A stretch of DNA of 64,000 bases from a virus (lineage: Duplodnaviria; Heunggongvirae; Uroviricota; Caudoviricetes). Position 1 is the stretch's first letter. Each line of letters begins with the position of its first letter. Under the pieces are notes generated by a model, which did no database searches, was not told the origin of the DNA, and saw only the letters and a program-made list of their open reading frames with translations. Of the stretch, positions 826 to 56,197 are shown piece after piece. Where the stretch lies: positions 18,847-82,846 of IMG/VR virus record IMGVR_UViG_3300032954_000003; one strand, written 5' to 3'. The translations under genes and the position numbers were made by a program.

Positions 826-1224
826 ATGGACGTTGATCCTGCCCTAGACCGGCGCATCCTGAATCTACGGATCGCAGGCGGAGGCATTACCGGCCTTGCC
901 GATCAGTTCGGCCTCACCGATCAAGAGGTGCTAGACGCGTGCAAGCGAGCCCTAGATGCGATGGAAGCGCGCGAACCTATTGCTCAGGTCCGAGACCTTG
1001 AACTAGCGCGAATCGACCTCTGCCTTCGAGCGGTCATCCCGCTTGCTCTCCAAGGCAATCTCACGGCAGCGCGCACAGCTCGTGAATTCATGCAGGATCG
1101 CCGCGACATTTACGGGCTGGATAATCTACGGCCGAAACCTGAAAGTGAACATGATCGGCTGGATGCTCTCAATGAGCGACGGCGAACACGTCGCACACGC
1201 GGTATGCCACACGCTAAGAAATAA
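826..1224 (+). CDS. terminase small subunit candidate (HTH DNA-binding)
   Basis: GGAGGGA RBS precedes the ATG at 826. HTH-like segment ILNLRIAGGGITGLADQFGLTDQEV. The stop overlaps the terminase large subunit start (TAATG), a typical terS-terL arrangement. Confidence 0.45.
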   Translation: MDVDPALDRRILNLRIAGGGITGLADQFGLTDQEVLDACKRALDAMEAREPIAQVRDLELARIDLCLRAVIPLALQGNLTAARTAREFMQDRRDIYGLDNLRPKPESEHDRLDALNERRRTRRTRGMPHAKK

Positions 1225-6121: not shown

Positions 6122-8461
6122 TTGCCGATCCGAGTCCTAGACGCACCTCCTGTAGTTTCACTAAACGCCAAAGAAAAGAAGAAGATTCCTCAGCTTCTTC
6201 AGAGTCCCTATGAGCCAATCAGCTTTACTGATTGGATTGTCTGCATGATGTGGTCCCTAGCGCTACGTGGGAACTTCTTTGGACAGATCGTGGAACGTGA
6301 TCGTCTAGGTTATCCAACCCAGATCATGCCGGTCAACCCAGATTTAGTAAAACCCCATCAAGACCCCTCAGGGGTTATTGAATGGCGCTTTGCTGGCAAA
6401 GTAGTACCAACCGAAGATGTTTTTCACATCCGCTATCAGTACATGCCAGGAATGCTCTTAGGATTAAACCCTATCCAAGTCTGCAAGTACAGTTTTGGTT
6501 TAGGCCACGTCCTAGACGTACACGCAGAGACAACCTTCCGCAATAGCGCTAACCCACTAGGTGTTCTCGAAGCTAAGGGAACACCATCGCAGAATGCGGT
6601 TGAACAGATGATCCAGCGCTGGCACTCAATGCACCAAGGAGTGCGTCAGTCCAGTCTGCCGGCAATCCTGACTGAGGAAACGAAATTCAATCCGATCTCA
6701 ATTTCCCCAGAAGATCAACAACTGCTCGAAAGCAGGAAATACTCAGCCGAGGAAATATGTGGCATTGTTTTCCAAGTACCACCATTCATGCTTGGTATGA
6801 CCCAACGCTCAACCTGCCTTGCTGCTGGTACACCTGTGCTGACTGATAAAGGTCCGCGAGCAATTGAGACGATCAAAGCTGGTGAAAGGGTTTGGTCCCT
6901 CGACGAGTCTCAGGCTCGGTTTGTGTTGTCTAAGGTTGTAGCGCAAGAGAAGACTGGCTGTGACCCAATATTAACGATCAAGACGCGCCCTGGCCGTACG
7001 CTACGAGCAAATGCCAAACACAAAGTTCTAGTAAGGCGCAAATTCGCTAATCCACAACGGGGCGTTGGGAAGTATCGCTGTGTAGAGTGGCGCAACATAT
7101 GGACGACAGCGGGCGAGTTAAAGGTGGGTGACTATCTCATCGCCGGGCATGGTCTACCCGCAAGCGACAAGCGCACGGCTCCAAATGGACGAGAGCTAAC
7201 GCCGCAGTTTATGGAGTTCGCGGGGTTACTCATCGGTGATGGCAACGTCATCAAAGGCAACAAAGGTGTACCGGCGGTTGTAACGATTGCGCGTCATCGT
7301 GATGCCCGTTACATGGATGTTTACCGGCGCGGTGCTGAACGCGAGTTCAACGCAACCCATGGCGTTGGTACGGCAACTGAACGTAAGTTATCACCGATTA
7401 GGCTTCGTGAGTATGAGCGTTGCACGACGTTTTCATCCGTTACGGCAGCATCTGAGCTGGCAAGTCTCGGTTTCAGCGGTACAGCACATACAAAGCGTGT
7501 ACCTGAATGGCTGTTTGGCGTTGCGCCTGAGTTGCAACTCGCCTTCTTGCGTGGCTATGCTGACGCTGATGGTTCGGTTACTGAACGCGGAGAACTTATC
7601 TTCTGTTCATGCAACCCAGAGCTATTACAGGATGTGCGTCACCTTTGTATTCAGCTTGGGATTCCTGTAGGTCATCTGTGTGAGCATGATACGGCTGGCA
7701 CAGGGATGGTGATGGGGCGTAAAGTGACGCGTGGGAAGATGTATCGTCTAAATTGTTGCGATGCTGATTCGAACTTGCGCATTGGAACGCATGATTCACA
7801 GGACCTGAAGCGTTTGCAGCGGGCCAAGCGTTCGCCTAGACGCCAATGGTGGGATGCTGATTATCAGGGACGTGGTGGCAGCCCAGAGGCTCGTCCTGGA
7901 ACTTACTTCGACATTGAAGGCGCTCGTCTTCAGTGTATTACATCCATTGAGAAGTCTGCACCAGAGCCCGTGTATGATCTTACAGTCGAAGGTACCCATA
8001 CATTCTTGGCTGATGGTTTGGTTGTTCACAACAGCTACGGCCGTGGTATAGAGCAACAAGAGAGAACCTTTATTGCCAATACCCTCTCTGGATACCTCTG
8101 TCGCGTTGAGAGAGCGCTTACAGAATGCTTACCTGACGGGGAATACGTGAACTTTGACATACGTCACCGAGTCCGTGGCACGGCTGTAGAACGTGCTCAG
8201 CAAGCAAGCCTCCTAATGCTGTGCGGTGCTTGGTGCGCTGATGACTCTAGAGCCTTATTTGATATGCCTCCACTACCAAACGGAGAAGGCAAAATCTTCA
8301 ATACACCACTCAACACTGAGCTGCTTGAGAAGGCGCTTCTCGAAGTCAAGCAGATGGAAAAAGAAGAAGATGAACCAGAAGCGCCACCTCAGAACCCACA
8401 GTTTATGCCGGTTCCGGGTGGCGGTAGGGGTCCAAAAGCTCCTGCTGTTCCTAGGAGTTAG
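6122..8461 (+). CDS. portal protein (HK97-family-like) interrupted by an intein; true N-terminus probably upstream of 6122
   Basis: Portal-like segments flank a 406-aa insert with Hint blocks and LAGLIDADG motifs. The conserved portal N-terminal motif (AAVYGCVSLLANSIASLP) lies in-frame upstream of the TTG at 6122. Confidence 0.8.
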   Translation: MPIRVLDAPPVVSLNAKEKKKIPQLLQSPYEPISFTDWIVCMMWSLALRGNFFGQIVERDRLGYPTQIMPVNPDLVKPHQDPSGVIEWRFAGKVVPTEDVFHIRYQYMPGMLLGLNPIQVCKYSFGLGHVLDVHAETTFRNSANPLGVLEAKGTPSQNAVEQMIQRWHSMHQGVRQSSLPAILTEETKFNPISISPEDQQLLESRKYSAEEICGIVFQVPPFMLGMTQRSTCLAAGTPVLTDKGPRAIETIKAGERVWSLDESQARFVLSKVVAQEKTGCDPILTIKTRPGRTLRANAKHKVLVRRKFANPQRGVGKYRCVEWRNIWTTAGELKVGDYLIAGHGLPASDKRTAPNGRELTPQFMEFAGLLIGDGNVIKGNKGVPAVVTIARHRDARYMDVYRRGAEREFNATHGVGTATERKLSPIRLREYERCTTFSSVTAASELASLGFSGTAHTKRVPEWLFGVAPELQLAFLRGYADADGSVTERGELIFCSCNPELLQDVRHLCIQLGIPVGHLCEHDTAGTGMVMGRKVTRGKMYRLNCCDADSNLRIGTHDSQDLKRLQRAKRSPRRQWWDADYQGRGGSPEARPGTYFDIEGARLQCITSIEKSAPEPVYDLTVEGTHTFLADGLVVHNSYGRGIEQQERTFIANTLSGYLCRVERALTECLPDGEYVNFDIRHRVRGTAVERAQQASLLMLCGAWCADDSRALFDMPPLPNGEGKIFNTPLNTELLEKALLEVKQMEKEEDEPEAPPQNPQFMPVPGGGRGPKAPAVPRS
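6815..8032 (+). other. intein with LAGLIDADG homing endonuclease inside the portal gene
   Basis: Starts with Cys (STCLAAGTPVLT). Block B TLRANAKH, LAGLIDADG motifs FAGLLIGDGN and FLRGYADADGS. Ends VYDLTVEGTHTFLADGLVVHN followed by Ser+1. Confidence 0.8.
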
Positions 8462-18830: not shown

Positions 18831-18857
18831 GGCGAACGCCAGAAAGGAACGACAAAG

Positions 18858-24906: not shown

Positions 24907-26373
24907 ATGCCACTTGGGATAAAAGTTACAACCGGAGAGACTTCTGGTTCAGCCGGTTCATCCATTGTTACTGGTACCGCCTTCATTATCGGTTTGGCGG
25001 ACTGGGGTGTATTCACACCTACGCTTGTACGTAGTGCTGCTGGCTATCTAGCCGCTTTTGGCGAACGTACCGCTACATCATCCAAACTATTCGATGCCGT
25101 TGAAACGTTCTTCCAGCTTGGTGGTGAACGTGCGTACATCCAGCGTTGCGGCAAAGAAGCTTCTGGTGAAAAAGCAAAACCAGCCGCTCAGCTCAAAGGA
25201 GCGTCTCACGCGGAACAGATCAAAGTTGTTGCTAAGTACGTCGGAACACTTGGGAACAAACTCAAGATCGAAGTAGTTGAAAACGAAGCCAAAACGGAAT
25301 ATGAAGTCCTAATTCTCAACGAAGCTAGCGAACTTCTGGAAACCACTGGGCTTCTCAAAGAAGCTAAGCAGCTTGTCGGTAAGAGTTCGGCTTGGGTTAC
25401 ATACGCGGAAGGGACGAAATTCGCCGAAGGTGAAACGGAAAAACTCGAAAAACTAACAGCGAAAGCTTTCTCTGGTGGCACTAACCCCGCCGCTTCTATC
25501 ACCTCAGCTCTCGCCAAAGAATCCCTAGAACTTCTGCCTAAAACACTAGGTCCAGGCCAAGTCCTTATTCCTTCAGTGACTGGAGAACCGACTGAAGAAG
25601 CTACCCACAAACTTATGGGTGAACACTCGGAAAAAAACAACCGTGTGGCTCTCTGTGATCTTACGGATTCTTCTTCATCTACCACACTGGTCTCTAACAA
25701 AAAAACCTACGCCAACAACATCGCCGCCTATATGGAGTTTCACTCAAGTTCGTGCATCATCCCTGGTGTAACGCTAGGTACTACACGAACAGTTGCCGGC
25801 TCAGCCGTTGTAGCTGGGTTGTGCGCACAGGTGGCGAAAACAGAAAACGACAATCTCGCGCCAGCCGGTGTGACCTATTCACTTGCACCATTCGTAACTG
25901 GTTTTACCAACACATTTTCACTGACTCAGATGCAGACTCTAGGAGAAAACGGCATCAACGCTTTTGCGGAACGGCAGAGCAAACCTGTTCTCTACAACTT
26001 TGTGTCTGCAATCCCAGTAACAACGGACAAGATTTTCTGGCAGTTCTCAGCTAGCCGCGAGCGCATGCACCTCGTATGGGCTGCGGAAGAAATTGCAGAA
26101 ACCTACTTGTTCAAGCAGATAGACGGCCGCAAACAGCTCCTAGGACGCTTCCAGGGCGCATTAGGGGCGATGTTAGGGCGCCAGTGGACCCTCGGGGCTC
26201 TCTACGGTGAAACAGCCGCAGAAGGCGGCGTAGTGTACGTGGGCGAACCGATCAATACGCCAACGACTATCGCCGAAGGACAGCTAAACGCTGAACTGAA
26301 AGTTCGCATTTCACCATTTGCTGAGAGCATCGCCATCACCATTATCAGCTCTCCAATTACAGAAGCGATCTGA
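24907..26373 (+). CDS. tail sheath protein
   Basis: 488 aa. N-terminus MPLGIKVTTGETSG...GTAFIIGLADWGVFTPTLVRSAAGYLAAFG fits the sheath N-terminal consensus. Followed by a tube gene. Confidence 0.7.
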   Translation: MPLGIKVTTGETSGSAGSSIVTGTAFIIGLADWGVFTPTLVRSAAGYLAAFGERTATSSKLFDAVETFFQLGGERAYIQRCGKEASGEKAKPAAQLKGASHAEQIKVVAKYVGTLGNKLKIEVVENEAKTEYEVLILNEASELLETTGLLKEAKQLVGKSSAWVTYAEGTKFAEGETEKLEKLTAKAFSGGTNPAASITSALAKESLELLPKTLGPGQVLIPSVTGEPTEEATHKLMGEHSEKNNRVALCDLTDSSSSTTLVSNKKTYANNIAAYMEFHSSSCIIPGVTLGTTRTVAGSAVVAGLCAQVAKTENDNLAPAGVTYSLAPFVTGFTNTFSLTQMQTLGENGINAFAERQSKPVLYNFVSAIPVTTDKIFWQFSASRERMHLVWAAEEIAETYLFKQIDGRKQLLGRFQGALGAMLGRQWTLGALYGETAAEGGVVYVGEPINTPTTIAEGQLNAELKVRISPFAESIAITIISSPITEAI

Positions 26374-36642: not shown

Positions 36643-36947
36643 CTCTCATCCCGCATTTCGCTGCGCCCTTTGCCTTTAGTGCGAAGGGCGTAGTGAATGT
36701 TACCGAACAAGATAGTCAGCAGGAAATCTCAGACTGCATCTTCAATGTTGCTAGTTGCTTTGAAAACTTCCGCGAAGACTTGCCCGAATTTGGCATACCG
36801 GATCTAACATTCGAACAGATCCCACTGAATCTCGAAGCACTACAAGCGGCACTAAACCGCTGGGAACCGCGAGCGGAACTTACGCTTGAAGAAACAGAAG
36901 AACTTATGAATCCAGCAGCGCGTGCTGTATCGATCGAAGTGTTCTAG
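36639..36947 (+). CDS. baseplate wedge protein, GPW/gp25 family
   Basis: Segment FGIPDLTFEQIPLNLEALQAALNRWEPRAEL matches the GPW_gp25 signature (WEPR). Confidence 0.6.
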   Translation: MTLIPHFAAPFAFSAKGVVNVTEQDSQQEISDCIFNVASCFENFREDLPEFGIPDLTFEQIPLNLEALQAALNRWEPRAELTLEETEELMNPAARAVSIEVF

Positions 36948-38317
36948 AGAAGCTCTGCACGTTGGCGTATATCGAGTATGTGGTGCTGCCGTTCCAGCTT
37001 GCCGTCCTCAAAAAGCTTTAGCAGATAGTTGATGCCATCTGCTCCCTCCGCCAACGTTGCCAAAACACCCCTCCGGATAGTCAGCTTTAGCCGTCCGGCT
37101 TTGCTTGTCTTATCGGAACCTAGTGGTTCCTTATAGACAGGGTGCCACTCGCCTTCGCGCTTTTGTGCGCTGCACTTGAACGCAAACCTCTGGGTGTCGC
37201 GGTTGAGCTTTTGCAGTAGACCACCACCCATACCGAAAACCAAGTTCTCAGCAGCCCAACCAGCCTCTGCGGTAACGTCGAGGATCTGTTGGATATCGGC
37301 TGGTGTTAGACCATCGCCCCATAGGACGCGGACGTGGGGATCGAGTACGGTTCGCTTGCCGTTTGAGGTGCCACCAAACGCATCGCCTAGTGTCTGAAGA
37401 ATCCAGGTTACCAGCTCGCCTGGTGTTTTGTGTGCATCAGTGACTGAGTCAGGTCGTATAACAACAGGACCACCCTCGCGCTGCATGATCTCTTTCTTAC
37501 GCGCACAGATGTTGTATACGCAGTCATAGACGTTGTAGCTATCTACTACGATGGATAGCGGTCCTGAAGGGTACTGTTCGAGGATGTGACTAATCATGTC
37601 ATCCTCTCCCTCAGGGCCAAGCGCAGTCATTACTGAGTGCTCGGTCGCTGGTACGCTAGATCCAAGCTCTTCGTGGTAGCTGTCGCGCAACAGCTGGATA
37701 GCTGGCAACGTGTCTGTACCTAGGAAATTCACAAGGTGTGCCGCTCCACCTATAGCTGCTGCATCATGCGTTGTAGCGCCTCGATAGCCAAAGTCATGGA
37801 GCATAAAAGGCAAACCATTGAGCGAGCTTCCTGTATCCTCTAGTGCCTTTTTCAGCATTATCTTCACCTCTCGGCTAAGGGTTGCCACCGTGCATGGGTA
37901 CCACAAATGTGTTAGGTAGCTCTCGATGGCATTTGTTAGCCAGTAGCACTCGGGATCAGTGTTCTCGACCGTCATCAAGACATTGCCAGTCGGGATAGCC
38001 ATTCCCTCAGGGACAGCTCTTATGAGCAAAGGAAGTTTGCCATCATGCCAGTTGATGATGTGTTCCCACCCCTCAGTGTTAATCATGTCATCCGACCCGA
38101 AGTGCTTGCTTGCAAGCTGTTGCGCCTCTTGCAGGTGCTCGTCGGTTACTACCTCACCCGTGAGACCGCGTAGCAGGTGCTGTAAGCCGAAGAAAACGGT
38201 GTAGGGGTACCTTGCCCCTACTCGACTCTCGAAGTAGCTGTAAACGTGTTCAGTGCCCTCTGGATATTGTTTCCAGTGCGTGAGCTTGTATGAATCGGTT
38301 GCAAGTATGAGGTTCAT
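36944..38317 (-). CDS. nadV: nicotinamide phosphoribosyltransferase (NadV/NAMPT)
   Basis: Hallmark N-terminus MNLILATDSYKLTHWKQYP; 457 aa. Confidence 0.8.
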   Translation of the reverse strand: MNLILATDSYKLTHWKQYPEGTEHVYSYFESRVGARYPYTVFFGLQHLLRGLTGEVVTDEHLQEAQQLASKHFGSDDMINTEGWEHIINWHDGKLPLLIRAVPEGMAIPTGNVLMTVENTDPECYWLTNAIESYLTHLWYPCTVATLSREVKIMLKKALEDTGSSLNGLPFMLHDFGYRGATTHDAAAIGGAAHLVNFLGTDTLPAIQLLRDSYHEELGSSVPATEHSVMTALGPEGEDDMISHILEQYPSGPLSIVVDSYNVYDCVYNICARKKEIMQREGGPVVIRPDSVTDAHKTPGELVTWILQTLGDAFGGTSNGKRTVLDPHVRVLWGDGLTPADIQQILDVTAEAGWAAENLVFGMGGGLLQKLNRDTQRFAFKCSAQKREGEWHPVYKEPLGSDKTSKAGRLKLTIRRGVLATLAEGADGINYLLKLFEDGKLERQHHILDIRQRAELL

Positions 38318-39282
38318 CTCTTTACCTTTCGTATCTCTAAACCGCTGGTGTCGAGTTCAAGTTCTTCCACAACATGTAGTAATGCTCTGGACAATAGAGG
38401 TCGATGGTTTGGCATGACCTTGAGTTCAAGGTCTATGTCCAGTATGGATTCGTCTCCACGCCAGATATCGAACCAACCTACTTCCTCAATGTCGTCGTCT
38501 GGCCGAGGTGTACCGCTTTGGTGCTTAGCAGCGAACAGTAAAGTCTTGACCTTGTCTTGCTCGTTGCGATAGCGCCAGTCATCAACTTTGAAGGAACCGA
38601 GATACATTGGGTCCGTGATTTCTATGTGTGTCTCCTCATGCACCTCGCGCCGAGCATCCTGCTCAAATGTCTCTGAGGATGGATCAGCGAACCCACCGAT
38701 CAAGCGCCATAGCTTCTCGTCTGCCTTACGGCACAGAAGAATACGCTCGTAATCCTCACTGAAAACAGCTATATCTACTGTTGTAAACGAGGTAGGAAAG
38801 CGACTCTGCGAAGCCCACACAACACCAGCGCGCCAATCTGGCGAGTTCTTAGTTCGCCGGCGTCCCACCTCCTTTCGAAGCTGGCTGCCAGATACTCGGA
38901 TATAGTGCTCAGGCTCAAGTACCTCAGTAGGGTATGCCCCTCTGTAATGCTCTATGAATGAGTCCCGACCACCATATAGGATTGGACTCTGGGCAGGCGT
39001 GGTAACCTTGGCTATCTCAGCATCGAGCTTACGGCTCCAAAGCTGATCGTTGTTGACGTCCTGTATATAGAGAACATTGAGGTCTGGATAGGCAGCTAAA
39101 AGCATCTGCTTTCGCGCTTCAAAATCCAGCGGATTCTCAGCTGTTACTGGCAAAGGTGACAACCCAAGAAAGACAATCACCTTGTGGTGTTTGGCACAGA
39201 CGCTCTCAATCAAATGTCTGTGCATCCCATGCAAGTCGTGGACTTGAAAACGTCCCACGATGACGCCTACGTCGTGTTCCAT
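38314..39282 (-). CDS. nadM: bifunctional NMN adenylyltransferase / Nudix hydrolase (NadM-Nudix)
   Basis: Cytidylyltransferase motif GRFQVHDLHGMH (HxGH). C-terminal Nudix box GGFADPSSETFEQDARREVHEETHIEI. Confidence 0.75.
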   Translation of the reverse strand: MEHDVGVIVGRFQVHDLHGMHRHLIESVCAKHHKVIVFLGLSPLPVTAENPLDFEARKQMLLAAYPDLNVLYIQDVNNDQLWSRKLDAEIAKVTTPAQSPILYGGRDSFIEHYRGAYPTEVLEPEHYIRVSGSQLRKEVGRRRTKNSPDWRAGVVWASQSRFPTSFTTVDIAVFSEDYERILLCRKADEKLWRLIGGFADPSSETFEQDARREVHEETHIEITDPMYLGSFKVDDWRYRNEQDKVKTLLFAAKHQSGTPRPDDDIEEVGWFDIWRGDESILDIDLELKVMPNHRPLLSRALLHVVEELELDTSGLEIRKVKR

Positions 39283-47957: not shown

Positions 47958-48273
47958 GTGTGCCCAAAGGGTGACCTAAGGGGTTACGGCTATATGGAAT
48001 GCTTGAACGGCTTAGAATCGCCAAGCCGCATACGCAAGGCTACATACAAGGAACGTCACAGCAAACGCTACAAAGCTGCCGGTTATGACCCATGCCGTTA
48101 CACTAGCTACAGCAATGAAATAACGGACAGGACGCGTTCTAGCAGCTACACGACGTTTTGCGTTTCGCCGCGCCCACCGATACTCCTTGCGTGTTGCGTA
48201 ATTCTCTCGGTTTAGTTGAGTGCTCATGCAACGTAGGATAGCAGTGGACCGACGCTAGTGCAAACGCCGCTGG

Positions 48274-48789
48274 TCACTCATCAGTCTCTCCGTGGTCTCT
48301 GGGGGTGTGGGCTGCTGAGAGCCAGTTCTCGAACGCTGGTCGTAGCTCGGCGGGTAGCTCGCTCTCGCGGCCCTCGTATGGCCATTCGCCGTTGTAGCCC
48401 TCACCGCTGTGCGCGAAGCCAGCCACGTAGGCCGCCAGCAGCTCCTCATCTGTCGGCTCACCGGACCGGACGGGCTCGGCCAACTTGTCGAAGGCGTCGG
48501 CTATGGCCGCCTCGAACCGATAGGTGCTGCTGATTGGGCCCCAGCCTGTCAGCTCCGCAATGAGCTCGTCGTGCGTGTGCATCCGGTCCCAGAACCAGCA
48601 CATCCGGGCGTGTGGCGTGCCAGCACCGATCGGGCCGGTCTCCTCGTGGTCTGTGACACCAGGGATACCGCCCTCCACATCGCCGGGCCAATAGGTCGGG
48701 CTGCCCCGGACGGGCTCGTAGGAGCAGGTCCTCTCGTCGCTGGTGTGGACCTTTACGTGAGAGCCGCAGGTGGGGCAGGTGTCAGCCAT
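48274..48789 (-). CDS. hypothetical protein with N-terminal Zn-ribbon (GC-rich island)
   Basis: GGAGGAG RBS precedes the ATG (MADTCPTCGSH...). About 68% GC. Start overlaps the upstream stop. Confidence 0.55.
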   Translation of the reverse strand: MADTCPTCGSHVKVHTSDERTCSYEPVRGSPTYWPGDVEGGIPGVTDHEETGPIGAGTPHARMCWFWDRMHTHDELIAELTGWGPISSTYRFEAAIADAFDKLAEPVRSGEPTDEELLAAYVAGFAHSGEGYNGEWPYEGRESELPAELRPAFENWLSAAHTPRDHGETDE

Positions 48790-49288
48790 TCGACTCCTCC
48801 GAGGTAGGGGTGGTTGGGTTCTGGGCTGCGAGTGCTGCGCGGGCCACGGTTCCGGCGGGGGAATTGGCACAGTCCTCGTTGGTAGCGATGAACCCCAGGG
48901 CCGCTTTGTAGCGCCCTCCGACCAGCGACTCGCGGTCCCGCTGTTCCCGATAACTCTGCTCGCGTGCAAGTGCCCCGTCCCGCTCCTCCCTCAGAGCCCT
49001 TGCGTCCTCTTCTGCCGCCTCTGCTCGCCGGTTTTTCTTTTCCGCCAGCTCGCGCAACGACTCCCGCGCTCGGCGGTGCATGGCGATCTCCTCTTCTGCA
49101 TGGGAAAGGGCGGACTCGGCTTGCTCGGCTCCGACTTCCTCGATGTAGTCGCAGGCATCGACCCATCCGGCGTTGTAGGCCACGCGCTCAATGACGCTCT
49201 GAGGGTGATGGCGCTCGCAGTGCTCCTGCATAGCGCTCGGATGGCGAGTCTCAGCCACGGGGTCTCCTGGGGATGGATGGTCAGGCAT
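48782..49288 (-). CDS. hypothetical coiled-coil protein (GC-rich island)
   Basis: GGGAG RBS plus ATG (MPDHPSPGD...); coupled to its neighbours. Confidence 0.5.
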   Translation of the reverse strand: MPDHPSPGDPVAETRHPSAMQEHCERHHPQSVIERVAYNAGWVDACDYIEEVGAEQAESALSHAEEEIAMHRRARESLRELAEKKNRRAEAAEEDARALREERDGALAREQSYREQRDRESLVGGRYKAALGFIATNEDCANSPAGTVARAALAAQNPTTPTSEESNG

Positions 49289-49604
49289 CGACCGGCTCCC
49301 GTGCGATTGAATCCCAGAAGCGCTTGGAGCCATCTACCTTGCACTCAAGGCCGCAGATCGTGCATTTGCCGTGGTAGTTCCACTCGACCTTGCCGCCCTC
49401 GGTCCACCACTCGTAATCCTCGCGGAAGGTCCGGTACTTGTTGTCTTCGGCGTCCGGGAGGTCCGGCAAGTCGGCGCGGCGCTGCTCAAACTCCTCGACG
49501 GGGATCTGGCCGTAAAGCGCGTCAACTTCGCGCTTTGCCTCTTCGGCGGTTTCCTTGGCCTGCTGCAAGCATCGCGGGCAGGCTGCCCAGTTATCGGCAC
49601 TCAT
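49281..49604 (-). CDS. hypothetical Zn-ribbon protein (GC-rich island)
   Basis: GAGAGGAGCGAG RBS. CPRC...CTICGLEC motifs. Confidence 0.55.
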   Translation of the reverse strand: MSADNWAACPRCLQQAKETAEEAKREVDALYGQIPVEEFEQRRADLPDLPDAEDNKYRTFREDYEWWTEGGKVEWNYHGKCTICGLECKVDGSKRFWDSIAREPVDA

Positions 49605-50117
49605 GGCCGCTCGCTCCTCTCACTAGATGGTGTGGTCCTGCCTGCTAGCAGCGCGTTCGTTTCGTCGATGATTTCCTGCGCCTCGTCGGACTCGGGCGGC
49701 GTTGTCGTGGCTTCCCAGAATCGTCGCGTTCGGGCCAGCACCCGCAGCGCCTCCTCCTTCTGGCGCTTCTCCTCGGTGTAGGCGGACTCGACCCGGGTCG
49801 GGAAGATGGCCAAGTCGATGTACTGGACACCCGCAGTTGCCCAGACGCCATGCAGCACCCAGGATTCGCGCCCGTGTGGTCCGAGCTTGGGCTTGTCGCT
49901 CCCTTCCGGTCCCTCGGCGACGAACCCCTCTCGGAGCAGTGCGTCGATGAGGGCTTGCGTCCCGCGTGCGGGCTCAGTCCAGGGCACGGCCACAATGTCG
50001 AAGTCCCGCGCCTCGCTGCCGTGTCGAGCGATGGCGTAGCCCGTCAGGTATCCGGCGTGACGCACACGCTCAATGATTCGGTCCAGTGCGGCCTCCCGTG
50101 GCTCAGTGTGATTGCTC
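49601..50117 (-). CDS. minimal nucleotidyltransferase (Pol-beta superfamily, MNT-like) candidate
   Basis: HGSEARDFDIVAV fits the hG[GS]...D.D NTase motif. AAGG RBS plus the ATG MSNHTEP. Confidence 0.45.
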
Positions 50118-50459
50118 ATCCGAACGCTGCCTTGATCGCCAGGCATCGGGGGCCTCCCGCTGACGCTTGGCTGCCTCGTACTCGGGGCTGCCCTCGGGTG
50201 GCCACGGGCCGGGCGAGAAGTCTTCCCAGCGAGTCACGATGCGCCGCTGATTGGCCGGTCCGGGATAGGTGCGCTCCTCCACCGTCGCCCCGCACGCCTC
50301 TAAGAAGGCGTGAATGGCGGCTTCGGCCTCCTCAACATCTTCGGCATCCTCAAGCGGCGAGCGGCCGTAGCACTCCTCGTAGCTCATGGCACAGCGGCCA
50401 CCGTCGTCCCACTTGTACTGCGGTTCGCGGTCGTACGTGGCGCGGATGTGTGCCTCCAC
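50103..50459 (-). CDS. hypothetical acidic protein (GC-rich island)
   Basis: ORF overlaps the start of the NTase gene; the start codon (GTG at 50459 or an internal ATG) is uncertain. Confidence 0.4.
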   Translation of the reverse strand: MEAHIRATYDREPQYKWDDGGRCAMSYEECYGRSPLEDAEDVEEAEAAIHAFLEACGATVEERTYPGPANQRRIVTRWEDFSPGPWPPEGSPEYEAAKRQREAPDAWRSRQRSDEQSH

Positions 50460-50498
50460 AGCCTCAGGGTGGCAACCTCAGATCAGGGGTGGGCTCAG

Positions 50499-50831
50499 TC
50501 ATCGCGTACCTCGGGTGTTCAGCTCACTATTTCTCGCAGCTACAGCTACACGAGCATCCGCCATAGCTTGATGGAACTTCGATTCCCATTCTGGGTCGTC
50601 GTCCGGTATGCGCGCACGTATGCTTGTTGCTAATACAACATCACGACCTCGTATTCCTACGTATGACATCTTTTCTAACACTTCGGTGACGTTGTTTTTA
50701 GAGCGATGGTCTGCAAACCAGCGAGCTTTACGATAAAGGTGCTGATCGTGACGTATTAGCCAACGGCGTCTGTAGTAAAACGCAATCGCTACGAGAACCA
50801 CAAGGAACAGAAGCACACCGAGGTCTGGCAT
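50499..50831 (-). CDS. small membrane protein (N-terminal TM helix)
   Basis: N-terminus LGVLLFLVVLVAIAFYY. Immediately follows the lipoprotein gene on the same strand. Confidence 0.5.
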   Translation of the reverse strand: MPDLGVLLFLVVLVAIAFYYRRRWLIRHDQHLYRKARWFADHRSKNNVTEVLEKMSYVGIRGRDVVLATSIRARIPDDDPEWESKFHQAMADARVAVAARNSELNTRGTR

Positions 50832-51791
50832 TTAGTGGGTCACCGCAAATCCTGCGCCTGGCGCAAAGGTTGTAACGTTTGGCGGAATTGCCTTTAGCTC
50901 ATCGATTTGAGCGCATGCAGGGCAGTGTTCGTAACCATGTTGACGTTCCTCATTTGCTTGTGCTTCCAGCTTGGCTTGTGCAACCTTGGCTCGTGCTGAA
51001 CCAACGGCTGCGAACTGCGCTTGTGCCTTATCGATTTCATTCTGGATAGCTTCTGGCAGTGTTACGTGTTCAAGCAGGAAGCTAATGTTCGAGAAGTAGT
51101 CATTACCGAGCGCCGATGCAATGTCGGTCTTGAGGTTAGCGTTGACTGCTTCTTGAACCTTTTGCAAGTTACCGTTGTTTTGTCCACCGCTGGACACGCT
51201 TGAACTGTTGTGGATTAGCGCACAAGATGACACAAGCTGTGGACACGTAACCGTACCGATGCTGCGTCGCAGATCATTGTTGATGATCGGTCGCACAACT
51301 TGGCTTAGCAGCGCACGCCAACCTTCTTCGCCTTCATAGGGCTTTAGCGCTTCGGCACCTTCATTGCTGGATTGAAATGTACGGATACCAAAGCGACTAT
51401 CGAAATCCTTGAGCAGTCTTACACCTGTTACTGAGCAGTTGAATGCCGTCGTGAAGTAGAAGGTACCTTCAAGTCCAACGCGAACACCATCTTGCGTTGG
51501 CACCTCAACGACATCTGCCCCCTTGCGGTCACCTTGACCAGATTCCGATGTAATGGTGTAGTTACGCTGTACGCTGTCCGCTGGGTACCAGTGGACTTCC
51601 GAGCCAAAACCTGGCCATGACCAGCCGGTCCCAGGACAAATAACCTTACTGATCCCATGACCATTGAACCACGTCCATGGTGCAATAAAGGAATGGCCTG
51701 TCCGTACTACTCCAATCTGCCCAGCACCCGGTGTAGCACCGCACGCTGCTAGCGCCAATCCAAGTGCTGCAACAGCGAAAAGTCGCTTCAA
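50832..51791 (-). CDS. SPFH/band-7-like lipoprotein
   Basis: Lipoprotein signal MKRLFAVAALGLALAACGA (lipobox LAAC). Central and C-terminal regions with Ala/Gln-rich coiled coil resemble an SPFH domain. Confidence 0.5.
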   Translation of the reverse strand: MKRLFAVAALGLALAACGATPGAGQIGVVRTGHSFIAPWTWFNGHGISKVICPGTGWSWPGFGSEVHWYPADSVQRNYTITSESGQGDRKGADVVEVPTQDGVRVGLEGTFYFTTAFNCSVTGVRLLKDFDSRFGIRTFQSSNEGAEALKPYEGEEGWRALLSQVVRPIINNDLRRSIGTVTCPQLVSSCALIHNSSSVSSGGQNNGNLQKVQEAVNANLKTDIASALGNDYFSNISFLLEHVTLPEAIQNEIDKAQAQFAAVGSARAKVAQAKLEAQANEERQHGYEHCPACAQIDELKAIPPNVTTFAPGAGFAVTH

Positions 51792-52201
51792 GTGATGCCT
51801 CCTGTTACATTGATGTCCACTGATCTGATGTCCTCATCGTTGATGAGATATGAACGAACCACCGGCTTTTGCCATGGTCCAACGCCAACTATCAGCCACT
51901 CAACATCTGGCCAGTTCTCCGCAAACTGGACGTCAACCATTGAAGGAAACGCAGGGATACAAATGTGCGAGTGATAGATGGCACCAAGCTTGAAACCTTG
52001 AGACTCGAACTCTGTGATCTGCTCGATAAGTTCGAGCGGATCAATAATGAACTCGACCTCCGGTTTGTCTGAGATGTTGATAGAGCGATGCATGCTTGTC
52101 GCTTCGTTATCCTTGGTGGCAATAAGTCCACAACACTCAAACGGCGCATCCTCCCACGCATGGGTGAGGATGTCGGCTAGGATGTTGGCGTTGATGTCCA
52201 T
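51788..52201 (-). CDS. JAB/MPN (JAMM) metallopeptidase
   Basis: JAMM motif elements PFECCG...YHSHICIPAFPSMVD (E ... HxH ... S..D). Confidence 0.65.
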   Translation of the reverse strand: MDINANILADILTHAWEDAPFECCGLIATKDNEATSMHRSINISDKPEVEFIIDPLELIEQITEFESQGFKLGAIYHSHICIPAFPSMVDVQFAENWPDVEWLIVGVGPWQKPVVRSYLINDEDIRSVDINVTGGIT

Positions 52202-52626
52202 TAGGGTCGGTATCGTTCAATTGCCTCTTGGACACGCTTTGCAACGTCTGTGACACCTGCTAGTGCGATAGCACTGATGGTGTCTGCAAGGCTTGGCGTC
52301 CCGTCTTGTGGATTCTCGTCCTGTAGCCGCTGTTCTAGTGCCTCTACATCCTGCTCTGTTTCGATCGGCCCTAGCTCACGAAGCTGCTGCGTCACGGCTG
52401 AGACCAACCTAGTGACTTCTTGTGCCGCTGGGTTATCAAGGTTCTCGTAGAACGGCAGTGTTACAACAGCAGCACGAGTTGAATTAGGGTACATCTTTTC
52501 GGCAAGTTCTCGGATGTTTTGCATATCGGTAGCGCTTGGTGGCGTGTCTAGCCGGATTTCAACCTGCGCTGCTCTGTCAGTTGCACTCGGTCCGCCAGCG
52601 CGAGCTATTACTAAATGTCTGTGCAT
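52201..52626 (-). CDS. hypothetical protein (141 aa)
   Basis: Its stop overlaps the ATG of the JAB gene (ATGA). Confidence 0.45.
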   Translation of the reverse strand: MHRHLVIARAGGPSATDRAAQVEIRLDTPPSATDMQNIRELAEKMYPNSTRAAVVTLPFYENLDNPAAQEVTRLVSAVTQQLRELGPIETEQDVEALEQRLQDENPQDGTPSLADTISAIALAGVTDVAKRVQEAIERYRP

Positions 52627-52675
52627 GGTGTCCTTTGGAAGGTGGGGACGCCGATTGACGTCCCCACAGTTTGAT

Positions 52676-54277
52676 CTATTCCAGCGGCTTTGCCGACAAA
52701 GGCGTTACCACTACTGTTGTCGAGTTACCTTCGCCACTCAGCAACATTGTGAACACTTCCCCGAGCAATCCTCCAAGTCCTAGCAAGCCGCTGTGGCAAG
52801 AGAACTTACCGATAGCGGATGTGCCATTGAGATGGACTTCGCTTTCGAGACTTGTAAGAGATTGATGTCCAGTGAGATAAAGCTTTGCCTTGCTTTCGCA
52901 GCTCGTGGGGATCTTCAGGCCGAGCATCGACAGGTACTCAATGCCGATTTGCTCGGTGCCGGTGGTGCGGAGCTTTGCTTCGGTGGCGCTTTCCCATTCG
53001 GTGTTTCCGGTGATGGCGCCGCCGATGTTTAGGCCGAGGCTTGCGACGGTGAGACCCTCCCATTCGAGTGGGGCTCTGAAAGTTCCCGTGCTGAATGAGG
53101 TGTTCAGATTCCCGTACAGTGCTGACAGACCCGACGCTTCCCCCACTGGGAAATTGAACGACTGACCCAACTTCTTGTCCTTCAGGCTGCTGCCCGCTAG
53201 AGACCACTTCGTTAGATGTAAGACTTTTGGGGCCGGTGCGCCGCCTCCGCCGACGTAGTTGTCGAGGAGGCCCTGGCCGATGACGGTGACGGGTTCTGGG
53301 AGGTCCTTGACTTCGTAGGGAGCGCAGCAGGGTTCATAGCCGCCTTCGCTCACGCCGATGCCGAGCATCCCGCGCAGGTTGCCGTCCCAGGTGTAGGCCT
53401 TGCTGTTCTGGAGTGCGATGAAGCTCTCTGTGCCGGAGGCGGCCTGCACGGCTCCCGTGATCGGTGCGGCGTGCATCTTGCCGTTGGGTTCGAGCATGTA
53501 GAGCGAGCCGTTTTCCGTCTGGGCGAGGCCGTCTGTCCACCCAGGCCAGAGGTTGACGACGCCGTTGGCGCGTTCGGTGAGTGCGTCCTCCGAGCATCCC
53601 ATCACCTTGCCCTTGGCGGTGAGGACGTACACGTCCTCCAGGGCGGGCTCGACCTGCTTCGCTTCGCTGACGCCTTCCATGACCACGGGGGAGTCGCCCC
53701 CGCCGCGTGAGGCGAGGCAGAACTGGTCGTATGTGTTCGTGCCCCAGTTGACGACCTGGCCGCCCGAGGTGACCGCGGCGGCCGATGCGGGGCCGGCGCC
53801 GATCGAGGTGGCGACCAGTCCGGGCACGACTTCCGGTAGATGGTGCGTGTCGAACTGCGGCTCATAGAGCGTGCCGTTGATCGTGGCGCCCCAGGTGACC
53901 ACGCTGCCGTTGGAGAGCAGCGCCATCGCGAAGTGCTCACCGGCCGCGATGTTGACGACGTGTTCGAGCGGCAATGCGACCGGGGTGTCCGAGCTTGCCG
54001 GTGAGGCGACGCCGAGCTGGTCGTATTCGTTCGAGCCACAGGTGTAGACCTTGCCTTCGCTGCCGAGGAAGACGACGAACTGTTCGCCGCCGGCTATCGC
54101 CGTTGGCTTGATCGACGACGCCGCGGCTGGGATGCTGCTGTACGCCTGTTCTGCGAACGGGATGCCGTCGCAGAGTGCTCCGTCTTCGTTGCCTCCGATG
54201 GAGCCGAGACCCGCCATTGCCGAGGGCGCTAAGACGAGCGCTGCCAGCGTGGCGACGAGGATTGACCCGAGTTTCAT
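52676..54277 (-). CDS. secreted RCC1-repeat beta-propeller protein (GC-rich, host-like)
   Basis: Signal peptide MKLGSILVATLAALVLAPSAMA. Repeats YTCGSNEYDQLG and WGTNTYDQ. About 68% GC. Confidence 0.6.
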   Translation of the reverse strand: MKLGSILVATLAALVLAPSAMAGLGSIGGNEDGALCDGIPFAEQAYSSIPAAASSIKPTAIAGGEQFVVFLGSEGKVYTCGSNEYDQLGVASPASSDTPVALPLEHVVNIAAGEHFAMALLSNGSVVTWGATINGTLYEPQFDTHHLPEVVPGLVATSIGAGPASAAAVTSGGQVVNWGTNTYDQFCLASRGGGDSPVVMEGVSEAKQVEPALEDVYVLTAKGKVMGCSEDALTERANGVVNLWPGWTDGLAQTENGSLYMLEPNGKMHAAPITGAVQAASGTESFIALQNSKAYTWDGNLRGMLGIGVSEGGYEPCCAPYEVKDLPEPVTVIGQGLLDNYVGGGGAPAPKVLHLTKWSLAGSSLKDKKLGQSFNFPVGEASGLSALYGNLNTSFSTGTFRAPLEWEGLTVASLGLNIGGAITGNTEWESATEAKLRTTGTEQIGIEYLSMLGLKIPTSCESKAKLYLTGHQSLTSLESEVHLNGTSAIGKFSCHSGLLGLGGLLGEVFTMLLSGEGNSTTVVVTPLSAKPLE

Positions 54278-54540
54278 TGCGGTTCACCTTCCCTTGTTCC
54301 GGTTTCTTTTGCCTCCCGTATTTCCTCGTGGCTAGCGCCTTTCTCAACTGCTAGATCAACGAGACGGTCACGCTCATTATATGTACGTACCATCTCTGTA
54401 ACTGCACGTACACAGCACGCTTCCGCTGAAACAAGCGCCGACAGCGCTTGCCGCTTAGCTTCCTCACTGTCCCTCTTTACAGAGGAGACAATGGCACTTG
54501 TTACTGGCTGAGCGGCCTTTTGGACTTGATCGTCGTCCAT
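54274..54540 (-). CDS. hypothetical protein (88 aa)
   Basis: Overlaps the start of the RCC1 gene; part of the same minus-strand operon. Confidence 0.4.
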   Translation of the reverse strand: MDDDQVQKAAQPVTSAIVSSVKRDSEEAKRQALSALVSAEACCVRAVTEMVRTYNERDRLVDLAVEKGASHEEIREAKETGTREGEPQ

Positions 54541-55118
54541 TATTCAGACCGTTTATACATGTTAGCCATTTCGAACCACCGACGCTCTAGCTCTGGATTC
54601 TCAAGCCAAAGCTTCTGACTTAGCGCATTATCAGCCGTTGGACACTCAGTGTTGATATGGCAACAGTACCAAGCGCCTACTTCTATGAAGGGTCTTTCTT
54701 CATAGCCGTGACGCCCTAAGCCAGGAATTGGCTCCTCGTAAGCAAGGAGCTTGACGTTGCCTATATGGTCACATGTATCCACTCGATATTGCCGTTTGTC
54801 GTCTGCCGAACTGACAATGAAGTATCCATTAGCATCGAGTTCTCGACGTTGATCCTCGCTCAAATAGCGCCGGAGGAGATCCATGGCACGTCTATCCGCA
54901 ACCCTTTGGCGAAGATGATACGCTCGGGTCATGTTATCGTTTATCAGCCGCCACCGTTGCCGTGACCAGAGATCATTTCGATTACCAGTGTAACTCTCCT
55001 CCGTCAACTGCTGGGCACGGACCAGCTCAGGATCTACCCGCTCGGCTCGAACCCATGTAGTGGCTGTAGGCATGCATGGCACATACTCGCGCCATGCATG
55101 CCACTCGCCGGCTGGCAT
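54540..55118 (-). CDS. hypothetical protein (192 aa)
   Basis: Clean ORF, overlaps its neighbour by 1 nt. Confidence 0.45.
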   Translation of the reverse strand: MPAGEWHAWREYVPCMPTATTWVRAERVDPELVRAQQLTEESYTGNRNDLWSRQRWRLINDNMTRAYHLRQRVADRRAMDLLRRYLSEDQRRELDANGYFIVSSADDKRQYRVDTCDHIGNVKLLAYEEPIPGLGRHGYEERPFIEVGAWYCCHINTECPTADNALSQKLWLENPELERRWFEMANMYKRSE

Positions 55119-55121
55119 TGC

Positions 55122-55349
55122 TCAGCCGCCCGCCATTGCTGGGACGTACAGGATGGCTGCTGCCATCTTGTCGAACTCGTGCAGCTGGTCACCGCGCTTG
55201 CCATCCGGGTCCATCCGGAACGCGAGATACTTCTTGTTGTGGACCATATCGGCGAACTGGTGTTCTGCTGACTGGACCTCAACATCCACGTCGGGGTCCC
55301 ACTTTGTCTCAGTGTCGCCCCTACGGTTTAGAACGTGTGCTACGCCCAT
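55122..55349 (-). CDS. hypothetical small protein (75 aa), first gene of the long minus-strand operon
   Basis: Strong AAAGGAGAG RBS precedes the ATG. Divergent from the S12-like gene. Confidence 0.5.
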   Translation of the reverse strand: MGVAHVLNRRGDTETKWDPDVDVEVQSAEHQFADMVHNKKYLAFRMDPDGKRGDQLHEFDKMAAAILYVPAMAGG

Positions 55350-55475
55350 CTATTTCTCTCCTTTTGGCTTAGATAAACTGGTCGGCGCGGAACTACAAAG
55401 TCCTTCGGGGTGGACGGTCCCGCGCCGGTCGCTAACGATAGCGGGTAACCGTAGCTAATGCAAGTCCCGTTTTAG

Positions 55476-55513
55476 CCGCTATTTGCGCGACTGCTTGCCT
55501 AGCCGGCTAGAGA
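55476..55513 (+). promoter_or_regulatory. conserved TTGCGN - CTAGCCGGCTAGAGA element upstream of the S12-like gene (one of seven copies)
   Basis: Copies at 5071-5101, 11688-11721, 24245-24261, 29047-29082, 43510-43525, 55476-55513 and a variant at 60444-60458. 12-bp palindrome CTAGCYRGCTAG. Confidence 0.5.
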
Positions 55514-55530
55514 TTGCTACCCTTTACCGC

Positions 55531-55923
55531 ATGCCAACGACTAATCAACTTGTTAGAAAAGGTCGCAAGCGCCCGTCAAAGACAAGCAAAAGCGCGGCGC
55601 TGCGAGGGAATCCGCAGCTACGTGGTACAGTTACGCGTGCGTACGTTATTAAGCCACGTAAGCCAAACTCAGCACTTAGGAAGGTAGTGCGCGTACGTTT
55701 GTCTAATGGCGAAGAGTTGACGGCAAGCATACCCGGAGAGGGACATAACTTGGCTGAGCACCATTCAGTGCTAGTAATTGGTGGAAATCGTCCCGATCTC
55801 GGTGGTGTTAGCTACAAAGTTATTCGTGGTGCGCTCGATCTATCTGCGCCATTTTCAGTCAATCAAAAGCCCGGAGACAAACGCAAGCAGTCACGTTCAA
55901 AGTATGGAACCAAGCGCACTTGA
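55531..55923 (+). CDS. rpsL: ribosomal protein uS12 (RpsL) homolog, divergent
   Basis: [13 protein letters not shown]...[16 protein letters not shown]...IPGEGHNL...[13 protein letters not shown]...[10 protein letters not shown] aligns along its full length to bacterial S12 and most closely resembles actinobacterial RpsL. The conserved KPNSALRK is intact. The loops around K42 and K87/P90 are altered. Confidence 0.8.
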
Positions 55924-56197
55924 ACTCAGACTTAGACGGGAGCGTGTCTCTCGTGCACGTTTGCGCGCAGCCGATACCGCTGAGCCACTTATGGTTCGCG
56001 TGACTGCTCTTGTCGCTGCCATCGCTTGCGATCCTGACGAACCGCTTGGTCCTGCTCCAAACTACACAGCACTACTTGGCAGTATCGCTGGACAAATCGG
56101 CTGTACACCAGCAGAGGTCCAACTTGCACTGACGGCAGCGCAAGAAAGTGGCTTGCAGAACCGCTTCGTGAAGGATTACCTGAGTGAGCGTACATAG
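55904..56197 (+). CDS. hypothetical protein (97 aa), overlaps the 3' end of the S12-like gene
   Basis: ATG in an alternate frame 20 nt before the S12 stop; no RBS. Confidence 0.3.

Follow-up and report, generated by a model that had tools for sequence, protein, structure and literature searches.

An accessory operon of an uncultured myovirus carries a captured actinobacterial SPFH pair, a JAB peptidase and a member of a Gly-Gly-terminated phage protein family

That bacteria use the conjugation of ubiquitin-like proteins (Ubls) as a weapon against phages, in the Bil and CBASS Cap2/Cap3 systems, is a recent finding. Iyer, Burroughs and Aravind (2006; PMC1779556) placed Ubl-associated JAB peptidases and the JABs of phage tails in one clade and argued that a JAB and a Gly-ended Ubl form a functional unit, phage tail clusters included. 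Open reading frames (ORFs) for SPFH/Band-7 proteins have been recorded since 2006 in the T4-like phages 44RR, Aeh1 and RB43, without functional tests (PMC1524935), and the Vi01-like phage PhiSH19 carries one that adjoins an annotated superinfection-exclusion gene (PMC3220722). Here we describe a phage operon that holds genes for an SPFH protein, a JAB and a Gly-Gly-ended, ubiquitin-like protein, on the minus strand of a stretch of 64,000 nucleotides (the window; positions 18,847–82,846 of the IMG/VR virus record IMGVR_UViG_3300032954_000003). Five genes in its middle (50499–54277) encode, in order of transcription, a secreted RCC1-repeat protein, a 141-residue protein, a JAB peptidase, an SPFH lipoprotein and a 110-residue membrane protein. 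All five ORFs are present where a preliminary description had placed them, and the depositors' gene calls agree.

Our best explanation of the whole, held with somewhat more confidence than doubt, is that the operon is a mosaic of separately acquired, independently mobile units and not one machine. Genes beyond the window were taken from the ENA metagenome contig ERZ27256576:k141_4285166 (108,815 bp), which encodes identical copies of the SPFH protein and of further proteins from the window. The minus-strand block runs from 55349 to 48012 (~7.3 kb) and counts 14 called ORFs, where 13 genes had been given before. It lies on the strand opposite to the head, tail and baseplate genes and adjoins baseplate and fibre genes, and the lysis genes sit elsewhere. 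The operon is accessory, neither structural nor lytic, which bears out the earlier remark that the five genes do not form a standard phage module. Its composition is mosaic: the genes for the JAB, SPFH, 110-residue and 141-residue proteins, and those for an 88-residue and a 192-residue protein nearer the operon start, have 49–53% GC, like the whole phage, and five genes at 48274–50459 have 62–67%. The RCC1 gene, described as 68% GC, measures 62.4% overall and reaches 66% only in the half that encodes the propeller, where the GC content of third codon positions (GC3) is 84% against 43–58% in neighbouring genes. The back-to-back arrangement with overlapping stop and start codons that had been ascribed to the five genes holds at the 141-residue/JAB, JAB/SPFH and SPFH/110-residue junctions, where the genes overlap or abut, but not between the RCC1 and 141-residue genes. 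Here a 49-nucleotide spacer contains a hairpin (52642–52667) with a 9-bp GC-rich stem, GTGGGGACG-loop-CGTCCCCAC, which divides the operon in two, each part a block of translationally coupled genes. The hairpin may serve in attenuation or in stabilising the RNA; it might also act as a terminator, although no U-tract follows the stem on the minus strand.

The SPFH gene (50832–51791, minus strand) encodes a lipoprotein of 319 residues whose Band_7 domain (PF01145; residues 37–277) scores 50.3 bits against a cut-off of 23.6 (E 3.7e-13), and which also matches phrog_200 (8e-18). The lipobox reported for it is there (LAAC, residues 14–17), and each of the 33 homologs that we aligned has a lipobox or an N-terminal hydrophobic helix. 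Within the family, C183, C190, C290 and C293 are invariant, as two conserved cysteine pairs, and the C terminus carries a conserved motif, CPACAQIDELK...TTFAPG. The four invariant cysteines and the N-terminal anchors are consistent with an extracytoplasmic SPFH domain, and we predict that the domain and its cysteine pairs are exposed on the outside of the cytoplasmic membrane. The gene that follows (50499–50831, minus strand) encodes the 110-residue single-pass membrane protein, likewise as described, with one N-terminal hydrophobic helix and then RRRW; since these basic residues come after the helix, we expect its C-terminal domain in the cytoplasm. It has no NfeD or other Pfam match and forms a family of its own. 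Export signals among the five proteins are confined to the RCC1, SPFH and 110-residue proteins.

At least 341 homologs of the SPFH protein were found, at 48–52% identity in Streptacidiphilus and Catenulispora and at 67% in a bacterial chromosome. We compared about 36 other SPFH loci, viral and bacterial, in which JAB genes were sought by phmmer and by a scan for the JAMM motif. They comprise a phage contig whose SPFH protein is 74% identical (L002), a bacterial island (L003), Streptacidiphilus chromosomes (L004, L005), five IMG/VR contigs of 60–125 kb (L036–L040), 26 species genomes, nearly all of Actinomycetota and including Streptacidiphilus, Catenulispora, Micromonospora, Frankia and Parafrankia (L041–L066), the bacterial chromosomal stretch with 67% identity, where the gene is flanked by sigma-70, DnaG, GroEL/ES and Mur ligase genes (L069), and a 178-kb phage-like contig (L070). 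A homolog of the 110-residue protein is encoded directly after the SPFH gene in four viral (L002, L036, L038 and L039) and six bacterial loci (L042, L049, L054, L061, L064 and L069), and one gene further away in L070. A JAB or RCC1 neighbour occurs in none of the roughly 36 loci. One weak phmmer JAB match beside the SPFH gene of L037 turned out to be a DNA ligase. We conclude that the genes for the SPFH and 110-residue proteins form a conserved two-gene unit of actinobacterial chromosomes that several large phages have picked up. Because only these two recur together, in a bacterial chromosome as well, we regard them as captured host cargo, and the comparison with cellular genomes that the preliminary description had proposed did turn up this pair in one chromosome, at 67% identity. 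No match to the SPFH protein was found by tblastn at E ≤ 1e-5 among 50,697 cultured-phage records. A second, different Band_7/SPFH protein (387 residues) is encoded on the contig to the right of the window (L030:17067-18230), near a papain-like Peptidase_C1 gene and a ParB_N gene.

In the explanation that we favour, the pair is a cellular two-gene unit taken from Actinomycetota. If it behaves like HflK/C, stomatin and flotillin, the lipid-anchored SPFH protein would form an oligomeric ring or cage on the outside of the host membrane, and its 110-residue partner would connect this scaffold to the cytoplasm. Such a pair would alter membrane organisation during infection, and its likeliest pay-offs would be the exclusion of other phages or the protection of the membrane against premature collapse.

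The RCC1 gene (52676–54277, minus strand) encodes 533 residues, a secreted beta-propeller (residues ~26–326) followed by a C-terminal part of about 200 residues. The protein matches Pfam RCC1 (E 4e-12; 46.8 bits against 21.7) and RCC1_2 (E 6e-15; 55 bits against 22) above the cut-offs and the whole-domain RLD model below its cut-off (E 2.5e-33; 116 bits against 150). Its best PDB match is the RLD of HERC2 (3.7e-23), and the propellers of UVR8 and RCC1 are matched as well, as are PHROG families. The signal peptide proposed for it was recovered by inspection and hydropathy: the N terminus, MKLGSILVATLAALVLAPSAMA with G after the predicted cut, is a classical Sec signal and the protein's sole hydrophobic segment. 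A tblastn search of the cultured phages gave one weak match only. The propeller is foreign, high-GC, host-derived cargo, as its GC3 indicates, so the earlier suggestion of cargo of host origin holds for two parts of the five-gene stretch, this propeller and the SPFH pair, the latter on the strength of its chromosomal counterpart and of a family found in 26 Actinomycetota genomes. The RCC1 protein would be a secreted binding protein that the phage acquired recently from a high-GC source.

At the head of the operon, outside the five genes, lies a gene that the preliminary description had missed and that offers, in our view, the best explanation of the JAB. It encodes a Ubl of 75 residues (55122–55349, minus strand) that ends in ...YVPAMAGG directly before the stop codon. 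A word-indexed protein search returned only the protein itself, whereas 1.84 billion cluster representatives (50% identity), scanned exhaustively with HMMER, gave 461 relatives at E ≤ 1e-3, mostly of 73–100 residues and aligned through the very last residue. Among the 147 short members within the best 150, 131 end exactly in GG, 14 extend 1–65 residues beyond it and 2 end in Ser-Gly or Ala-Gly. The C-terminal consensus is ...I-I-x-x-P-P-M-A-G-G, in which G74 is near-invariant and G75 invariant. An AlphaFold2 model built from an alignment of 111 sequences (predicted local distance difference test score, pLDDT, 91.2) has the order b-b-a-b-b-b, with strands and helix placed nearly as in ubiquitin. 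The top 50 Foldseek matches of this model in the PDB are essentially all ubiquitin, NEDD8, SUMO, PB1, Ras-binding or FERM-F1 domains, although weak (E 0.02–0.3; TM 0.35–0.5). A search of the 111 members against Pfam (including ThiS/MoaD) and PHROGs gave no match, and the family profile found nothing among PDB chains at E < 0.4. We conclude that this is a ubiquitin-like protein with a Gly-Gly end, of an undescribed family, in which the Gly-Gly hallmark is firmly established and the beta-grasp fold probable on the strength of the model. Eight Ubl-like stretches in a giant protein of 5037 residues (P0122) were taken for a repeat artefact, each being insignificant (iE ≥ 0.016).

The gene after that of the Ubl (54540–55118, minus strand) encodes a partner of 192 residues, with a disordered Trp/Thr-rich N terminus, a long helix and a conserved C-terminal domain in which Cys152, His154, Pro160, Asp163 and Asn186 are near-invariant; no fold is recognisable. 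We collected 37 further Ubl loci from IMG/VR with three degenerate DNA patterns, on contigs of 4.6–407 kb. A homolog of the partner is encoded directly after the Ubl gene in all 17 loci of a first sample and in 18 of the 20 of a second, hence in 35 of the 37, two of the others being cut at the locus end. The 18 include a diverged clade of about 300–350 residues in which the conserved Cys and Asp are retained. The genes for the Ubl and its Cys-bearing partner form an obligate pair that is widespread in phages. Its neighbours in other phages are mostly genes of replication, recombination and nucleotide metabolism (PolA, RecA, 5'-3' exonuclease, ligase, RNase H, ThyA and QueD/PTPS), and there are two loci each with DUF7873, caspase-like and Acb2/Tad1-type anti-defence genes. 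The Acb2/Tad1 domain was found in 2 of 110 ORFs scanned around the pairs; one such gene (Acb2/Tad1-hairpin, anti-CBASS/anti-Thoeris sponge family, E 5e-10) lies directly after Ubl and partner at L010:5636-5875 (minus strand). A DUF7873 gene, absent from the window, comes next after the pair at L031:10755-11501, L015:1361-2107 and L008:11337-12146. Many partners (alignment A4, for example P0274, P0275 and P0277) share a conserved ...LPxAACM end and a repeated WxxW in the Thr/Ser-rich disordered N terminus; the copy in the window has the Trp motifs and lacks the AACM end. Third in the operon is the gene for the 88-residue protein (54274–54540, minus strand), translationally coupled to the genes on both sides, without Pfam or PHROG match and without homolog in the other Ubl loci. 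We found no paper on a family of phage-encoded free Ubls with such a partner, which does not prove that none exists.

The JAB gene (51788–52201, minus strand) encodes a stand-alone JAMM/MPN+ metallopeptidase of 137 residues, of the desampylase, Mec+ and PfJAMM1 type, and the protein is cytoplasmic, as it has no hydrophobic segment or export signal. It matches Prok-JAB (PF14464) with 49.5 bits against a cut-off of 25 (E 4.4e-13), so that the RCC1, JAB and Band_7 assignments of the preliminary description all stand above the Pfam cut-offs. The catalytic motif is intact (E22, H77-S-H79, S87 and D90) and aligns with those of PfJAMM1 and 2kks, which are also its PDB matches (2kks, 6e-13; PfJAMM1, 5lda, 5e-12). 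The NCBIfam desampylase model NF041370 is matched with 62.4 bits (3.8e-17), below the equivalog cut-off of 130; by sequence, the protein is a relative of desampylases and not an equivalog. Its best phage matches are gpK-like PHROG families (6e-17) annotated as tail proteins, and its tblastn matches in cultured phages are all gpK-type tail genes. The claim that it stands outside a gpK context is nevertheless upheld: the protein consists of a JAB domain only, with no NlpC/P60 domain; its gene neighbours are those of the 141-residue and SPFH proteins, on the strand opposite to the tail genes, and not gpL, gpI or gpJ; and the phage has a tail sheath. No close relatives came up when viral and metagenome contigs were scanned with the single protein. 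The preceding gene (52201–52626, minus strand), whose stop codon overlaps the JAB start codon, encodes the 141-residue protein, also cytoplasmic, with no hydrophobic segment by hydropathy and no match in Pfam, PHROGs, NCBIfam or PADLOC.

Within the mosaic explanation, the JAB would work apart from the membrane proteins, as an isopeptidase whose most probable substrate is the Gly-Gly Ubl of its own operon. It would cut off whatever follows the Gly-Gly, such as the tail of a precursor, an adduct or a conjugate. The Ubl is the most economical candidate substrate because the closest characterised relatives of this JAB cut after the Gly-Gly of SAMP-, MoaD- and CysO-type Ubls and because JAB and Gly-ended Ubl have been argued to be a unit (Iyer et al.). 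Any activation of the Ubl would need a host enzyme of the MoeB/ThiF type, since precomputed Pfam calls show no E1/ThiF or E2 gene in ~84 of the ~109 kb of the source contig. We consider the Ubl–JAB link plausible.

Several observations weigh against this account. A JAB gene is found in 0 of the 37 other Ubl and partner loci, nor do these hold E1 or E2 genes in the available DNA; the Ubl–JAB link therefore draws on one operon and on family-level knowledge. The two genes are ~3 kb and four genes apart, with the hairpin between them, and the JAB is translationally coupled to the SPFH and 110-residue genes, an arrangement that would also fit a functional link among those three. The beta-grasp assignment comes from a predicted model with weak structural matches (E ≥ 0.02, TM ≤ 0.5) and no ubiquitin, ThiS or MoaD profile match. 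The proposed membrane role of the phage SPFH protein is drawn by analogy, and the E1 that a Ubl would call for was not seen in the inspected ~84 kb.

A bolder extension, which we put forward as doubtful, is that many phages carry a Ubl modifier system of their own. The system would depend on a host E1 that the phage hijacks, and the obligate Cys-bearing partner, of new fold, would serve the Gly-Gly Ubl as its acceptor, carrier or ligase. Joined here by a dedicated JAMM isopeptidase, the two would modify host or phage proteins or jam Ubl-based immunity of the host.

An attractive reading, though unlikely in our judgement, is that the Ubl, its partner, the 88- and 141-residue proteins and the JAB are a counter-defence against Bil or type II CBASS Cap2/Cap3, with the Ubl as decoy or competing substrate for host E1 and E2 and the JAB freeing targets from the host Ubl or from conjugated cGAS-like enzymes. 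That no phage E1 was found fits the use of host enzymes, the phage has a NAMPT and NUDIX/NMNAT-like pair for NAD salvage, and an Acb2/Tad1-type gene directly follows Ubl and partner in L010, the domain occurring in 2 of the 110 neighbouring ORFs. Protection against Bil by deubiquitinase (DUB) or JAB domains of phages has been a matter of speculation (Hör et al., bioRxiv 10.1101/2023.09.04.556158). Set against this, a PADLOC scan of ten operon proteins gave no meaningful match, Cap3/CBASS included, for the JAB or any other of them; most Ubl and partner loci lie among replication and recombination genes rather than in obvious anti-defence islands; and no JAB was found in the available DNA of the 37 other loci.

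The preliminary description had combined the five genes into one membrane-associated cassette. Read as a mechanism, the JAB would process or regulate the SPFH scaffold as NfeD/STOPP cleaves stomatin, with the 141-residue, 110-residue and secreted RCC1 proteins in the same system, for envelope remodelling or superinfection exclusion. The overlapping or abutting stop and start codons from the 141-residue to the 110-residue gene speak for such a system, as do the export or membrane anchoring of three of the five proteins, the position of the PhiSH19 SPFH ORF beside a superinfection-exclusion gene (PMC3220722) and the fact, established for stomatin and NfeD, that a protease is a classic partner in SPFH operons. 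The comparison of loci argues against it: JAB and RCC1 genes are absent from all of the roughly 36 further SPFH loci, whereas the 110-residue partner is found in 11. The JAB and 141-residue proteins have neither signal peptide nor transmembrane segment, so they would not meet an SPFH domain predicted to be extracytoplasmic, and the RCC1 gene differs in composition and is set apart by the hairpin-bearing spacer. The single cassette is thus not upheld, and we judge it quite improbable that these genes form one membrane system.

Still harder to sustain is a role of the Ubl as a sulfur carrier of the ThiS, MoaD or CysO type, which would serve nucleotide or DNA thiolation in the phage together with its partner, the JAB taking the part of Mec+ and freeing a product or adduct from the Gly-Gly end. 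The C terminus, ...PPxxGG, presumably resembles the ends of MoaD and CysO; the partner has a near-invariant Cys; the neighbours in other phages are genes of nucleotide and DNA metabolism, ThyA and QueD/PTPS among them; and the JAB is closest to enzymes of the desampylase/Mec+ type. Yet no member of the Ubl family matches Pfam ThiS/MoaD, no sulfurtransferase, E1, CysM or thiolase gene lies nearby, and the partner is without recognisable fold; we regard this role as very unlikely. That the proteins are virion or tail-assembly parts, the RCC1 repeats as a receptor-binding fibre domain and the JAB as a gpK-like tail-tip peptidase, is scarcely credible: the tail annotation of the JAB's PHROG families, its gpK-type tblastn matches, the occurrence of RCC1 repeats in large phage proteins and the adjoining baseplate and fibre genes are outweighed by an operon on the strand opposite to the structural genes, a predicted cleavable Sec signal on the RCC1 protein, a JAB without NlpC/P60 or gpL/gpI/gpJ neighbours, and a contractile tail (sheath gene, 24907–26373) in place of a lambda-like tip.

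The source is an uncultured, actinophage-like myovirus of ~109 kb, identified as such by its terminase, its tail sheath and its Ku and ATP-dependent ligase genes. The large terminase shares 40% identity with its counterparts in cluster-J-type mycobacteriophages, and the plus strand of the window encodes the head protease, major capsid protein, tail sheath, tape measure and baseplate proteins. The Ku and ATP-dependent DNA ligase genes are immediate neighbours on the contig to the left of the window (L068:4909-6593), an adjacency that resembles some mycobacteriophages. Megablast of positions 48000–56000 against cultured phages gave no match, and a search with a baseplate protein found no relatives of the phage in viral (IMG/VR) and JGI metagenome contigs; with no close DNA relatives, synteny with sister phages was not usable. 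A probable lysis region at 61860–63539 (plus strand) comprises a GH25 muramidase with a lipoprotein-type signal (…MLAAC), a 156-residue protein and a 79-residue holin-like protein with two hydrophobic stretches; as the GH25 enzyme and the holin-like gene sit there, we rejected a lysis role for the five genes.

Several further features of the phage were noted. Precomputed Pfam calls place intein or LAGLIDADG homing-endonuclease signatures in the genes for the large terminase (1224–3731) and portal (6122–8461), both on the plus strand. The NAD-salvage pair consists of a NAMPT gene (phrog_448, 1e-138) that overlaps a NUDIX/cytidylyltransferase-like gene (36944–38317 and 38314–39282, minus strand); phages use such pairs against NAD-depleting defence systems. 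Divergent from the Ubl operon is a full-length uS12 homolog of 130 residues (55531–55923, plus strand; Pfam Ribosom_S12_S23, E 2.1e-27, 95 bits), of which the contig's gene call spans the last 78 residues only. In the high-GC tail of the operon, a 181-residue protein (49601–50146, minus strand) has a GS...DxD stretch (HGSEARDFDIVAV) resembling a minimal nucleotidyltransferase motif and matches only PHROGs without assigned function. To the right of the window the contig encodes a TROVE/Ro60 and vWA protein (L030:12974-14653).

Viewed in isolation, the five genes amount to accessory cargo of an ordinary sort, with an SPFH pair of host origin, a secreted propeller and a JAB. The main gain lies in their context, a large phage family that bears a Ubl hallmark, is absent from Pfam and PHROGs and is paired with an uncharacterised Cys-bearing protein. 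A viral Ubl module that shares an operon with a Ubl-type isopeptidase would offer a cheap, concrete handle on whether phages use or subvert Ubl chemistry. The SPFH protein and its partner, in turn, show clearly how a membrane-scaffold module has passed between Actinomycetota and their large phages.

Compared with the SPFH ORFs noted before in large phages (44RR, Aeh1, RB43, PhiSH19 and PHROG 200), the present gene is likewise borne by a large myovirus, but its family is actinobacterial and comes with a membrane partner of its own. It shares with stomatin and NfeD/STOPP, HflK/HflC-FtsH and the flotillins a Band-7 domain that is anchored at the N terminus and leads into a helical region rich in Ala and Gln, and with bacterial and archaeal SPFH operons a small membrane protein encoded immediately downstream. 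Unlike the partner in stomatin operons, this protein is not NfeD; the lipobox anchor is predicted to place the phage SPFH domain outside the membrane; and the family has its four invariant cysteines and its own C-terminal motif.

For the Ubl and JAB, three kinds of system are comparable. Bil (Ubl-E1-E2-JAB), type II CBASS Cap2/Cap3 and Bub likewise have a Gly-terminated protein, a beta-grasp in their case and probably also here, and a JAB-type peptidase; they are defined by E1 and E2 genes, whereas we found none here and no PADLOC model was matched, in a virus rather than a host defence island. The TAPI (gpI, a Ubl domain with conserved C-terminal Gly) and TAPK (gpK, JAB plus NlpC/P60) proteins of lambda and T1 combine a JAB and a Gly-terminated Ubl without E1 or E2, as this operon does (PMC1779556), and the phage JAB falls in the same broad clade as TAPK. 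Unlike TAPK, however, it has no NlpC/P60 domain, no gpL/gpJ neighbours and no tail-tip context, and its phage is a myovirus; the Ubl, unlike TAPI, is a free-standing protein of 75 residues that ends at GG, with no Gly-rich linker and second domain; and the two genes are not adjacent. HvJAMM1 with the SAMPs (the Haloferax desampylase), PfJAMM1 with SAMP2 (Pyrococcus, PDB 5LDA) and Mec+ with CysO (Mycobacterium tuberculosis) differ in their setting, since here no E1 (UbaA/MoeZ) or CysM is encoded nearby, the genes belong to a phage, and the Ubl comes with an obligate partner and has no detectable sequence relation to SAMP, ThiS or MoaD. They are nonetheless the best sequence matches of the phage JAB, even at 62 bits against the equivalog cut-off of 130, and like them it is a small (~135 residues) single-domain enzyme with the full E/HxH/S/D motif; its transcription unit also encodes a small Gly-Gly-ended protein.

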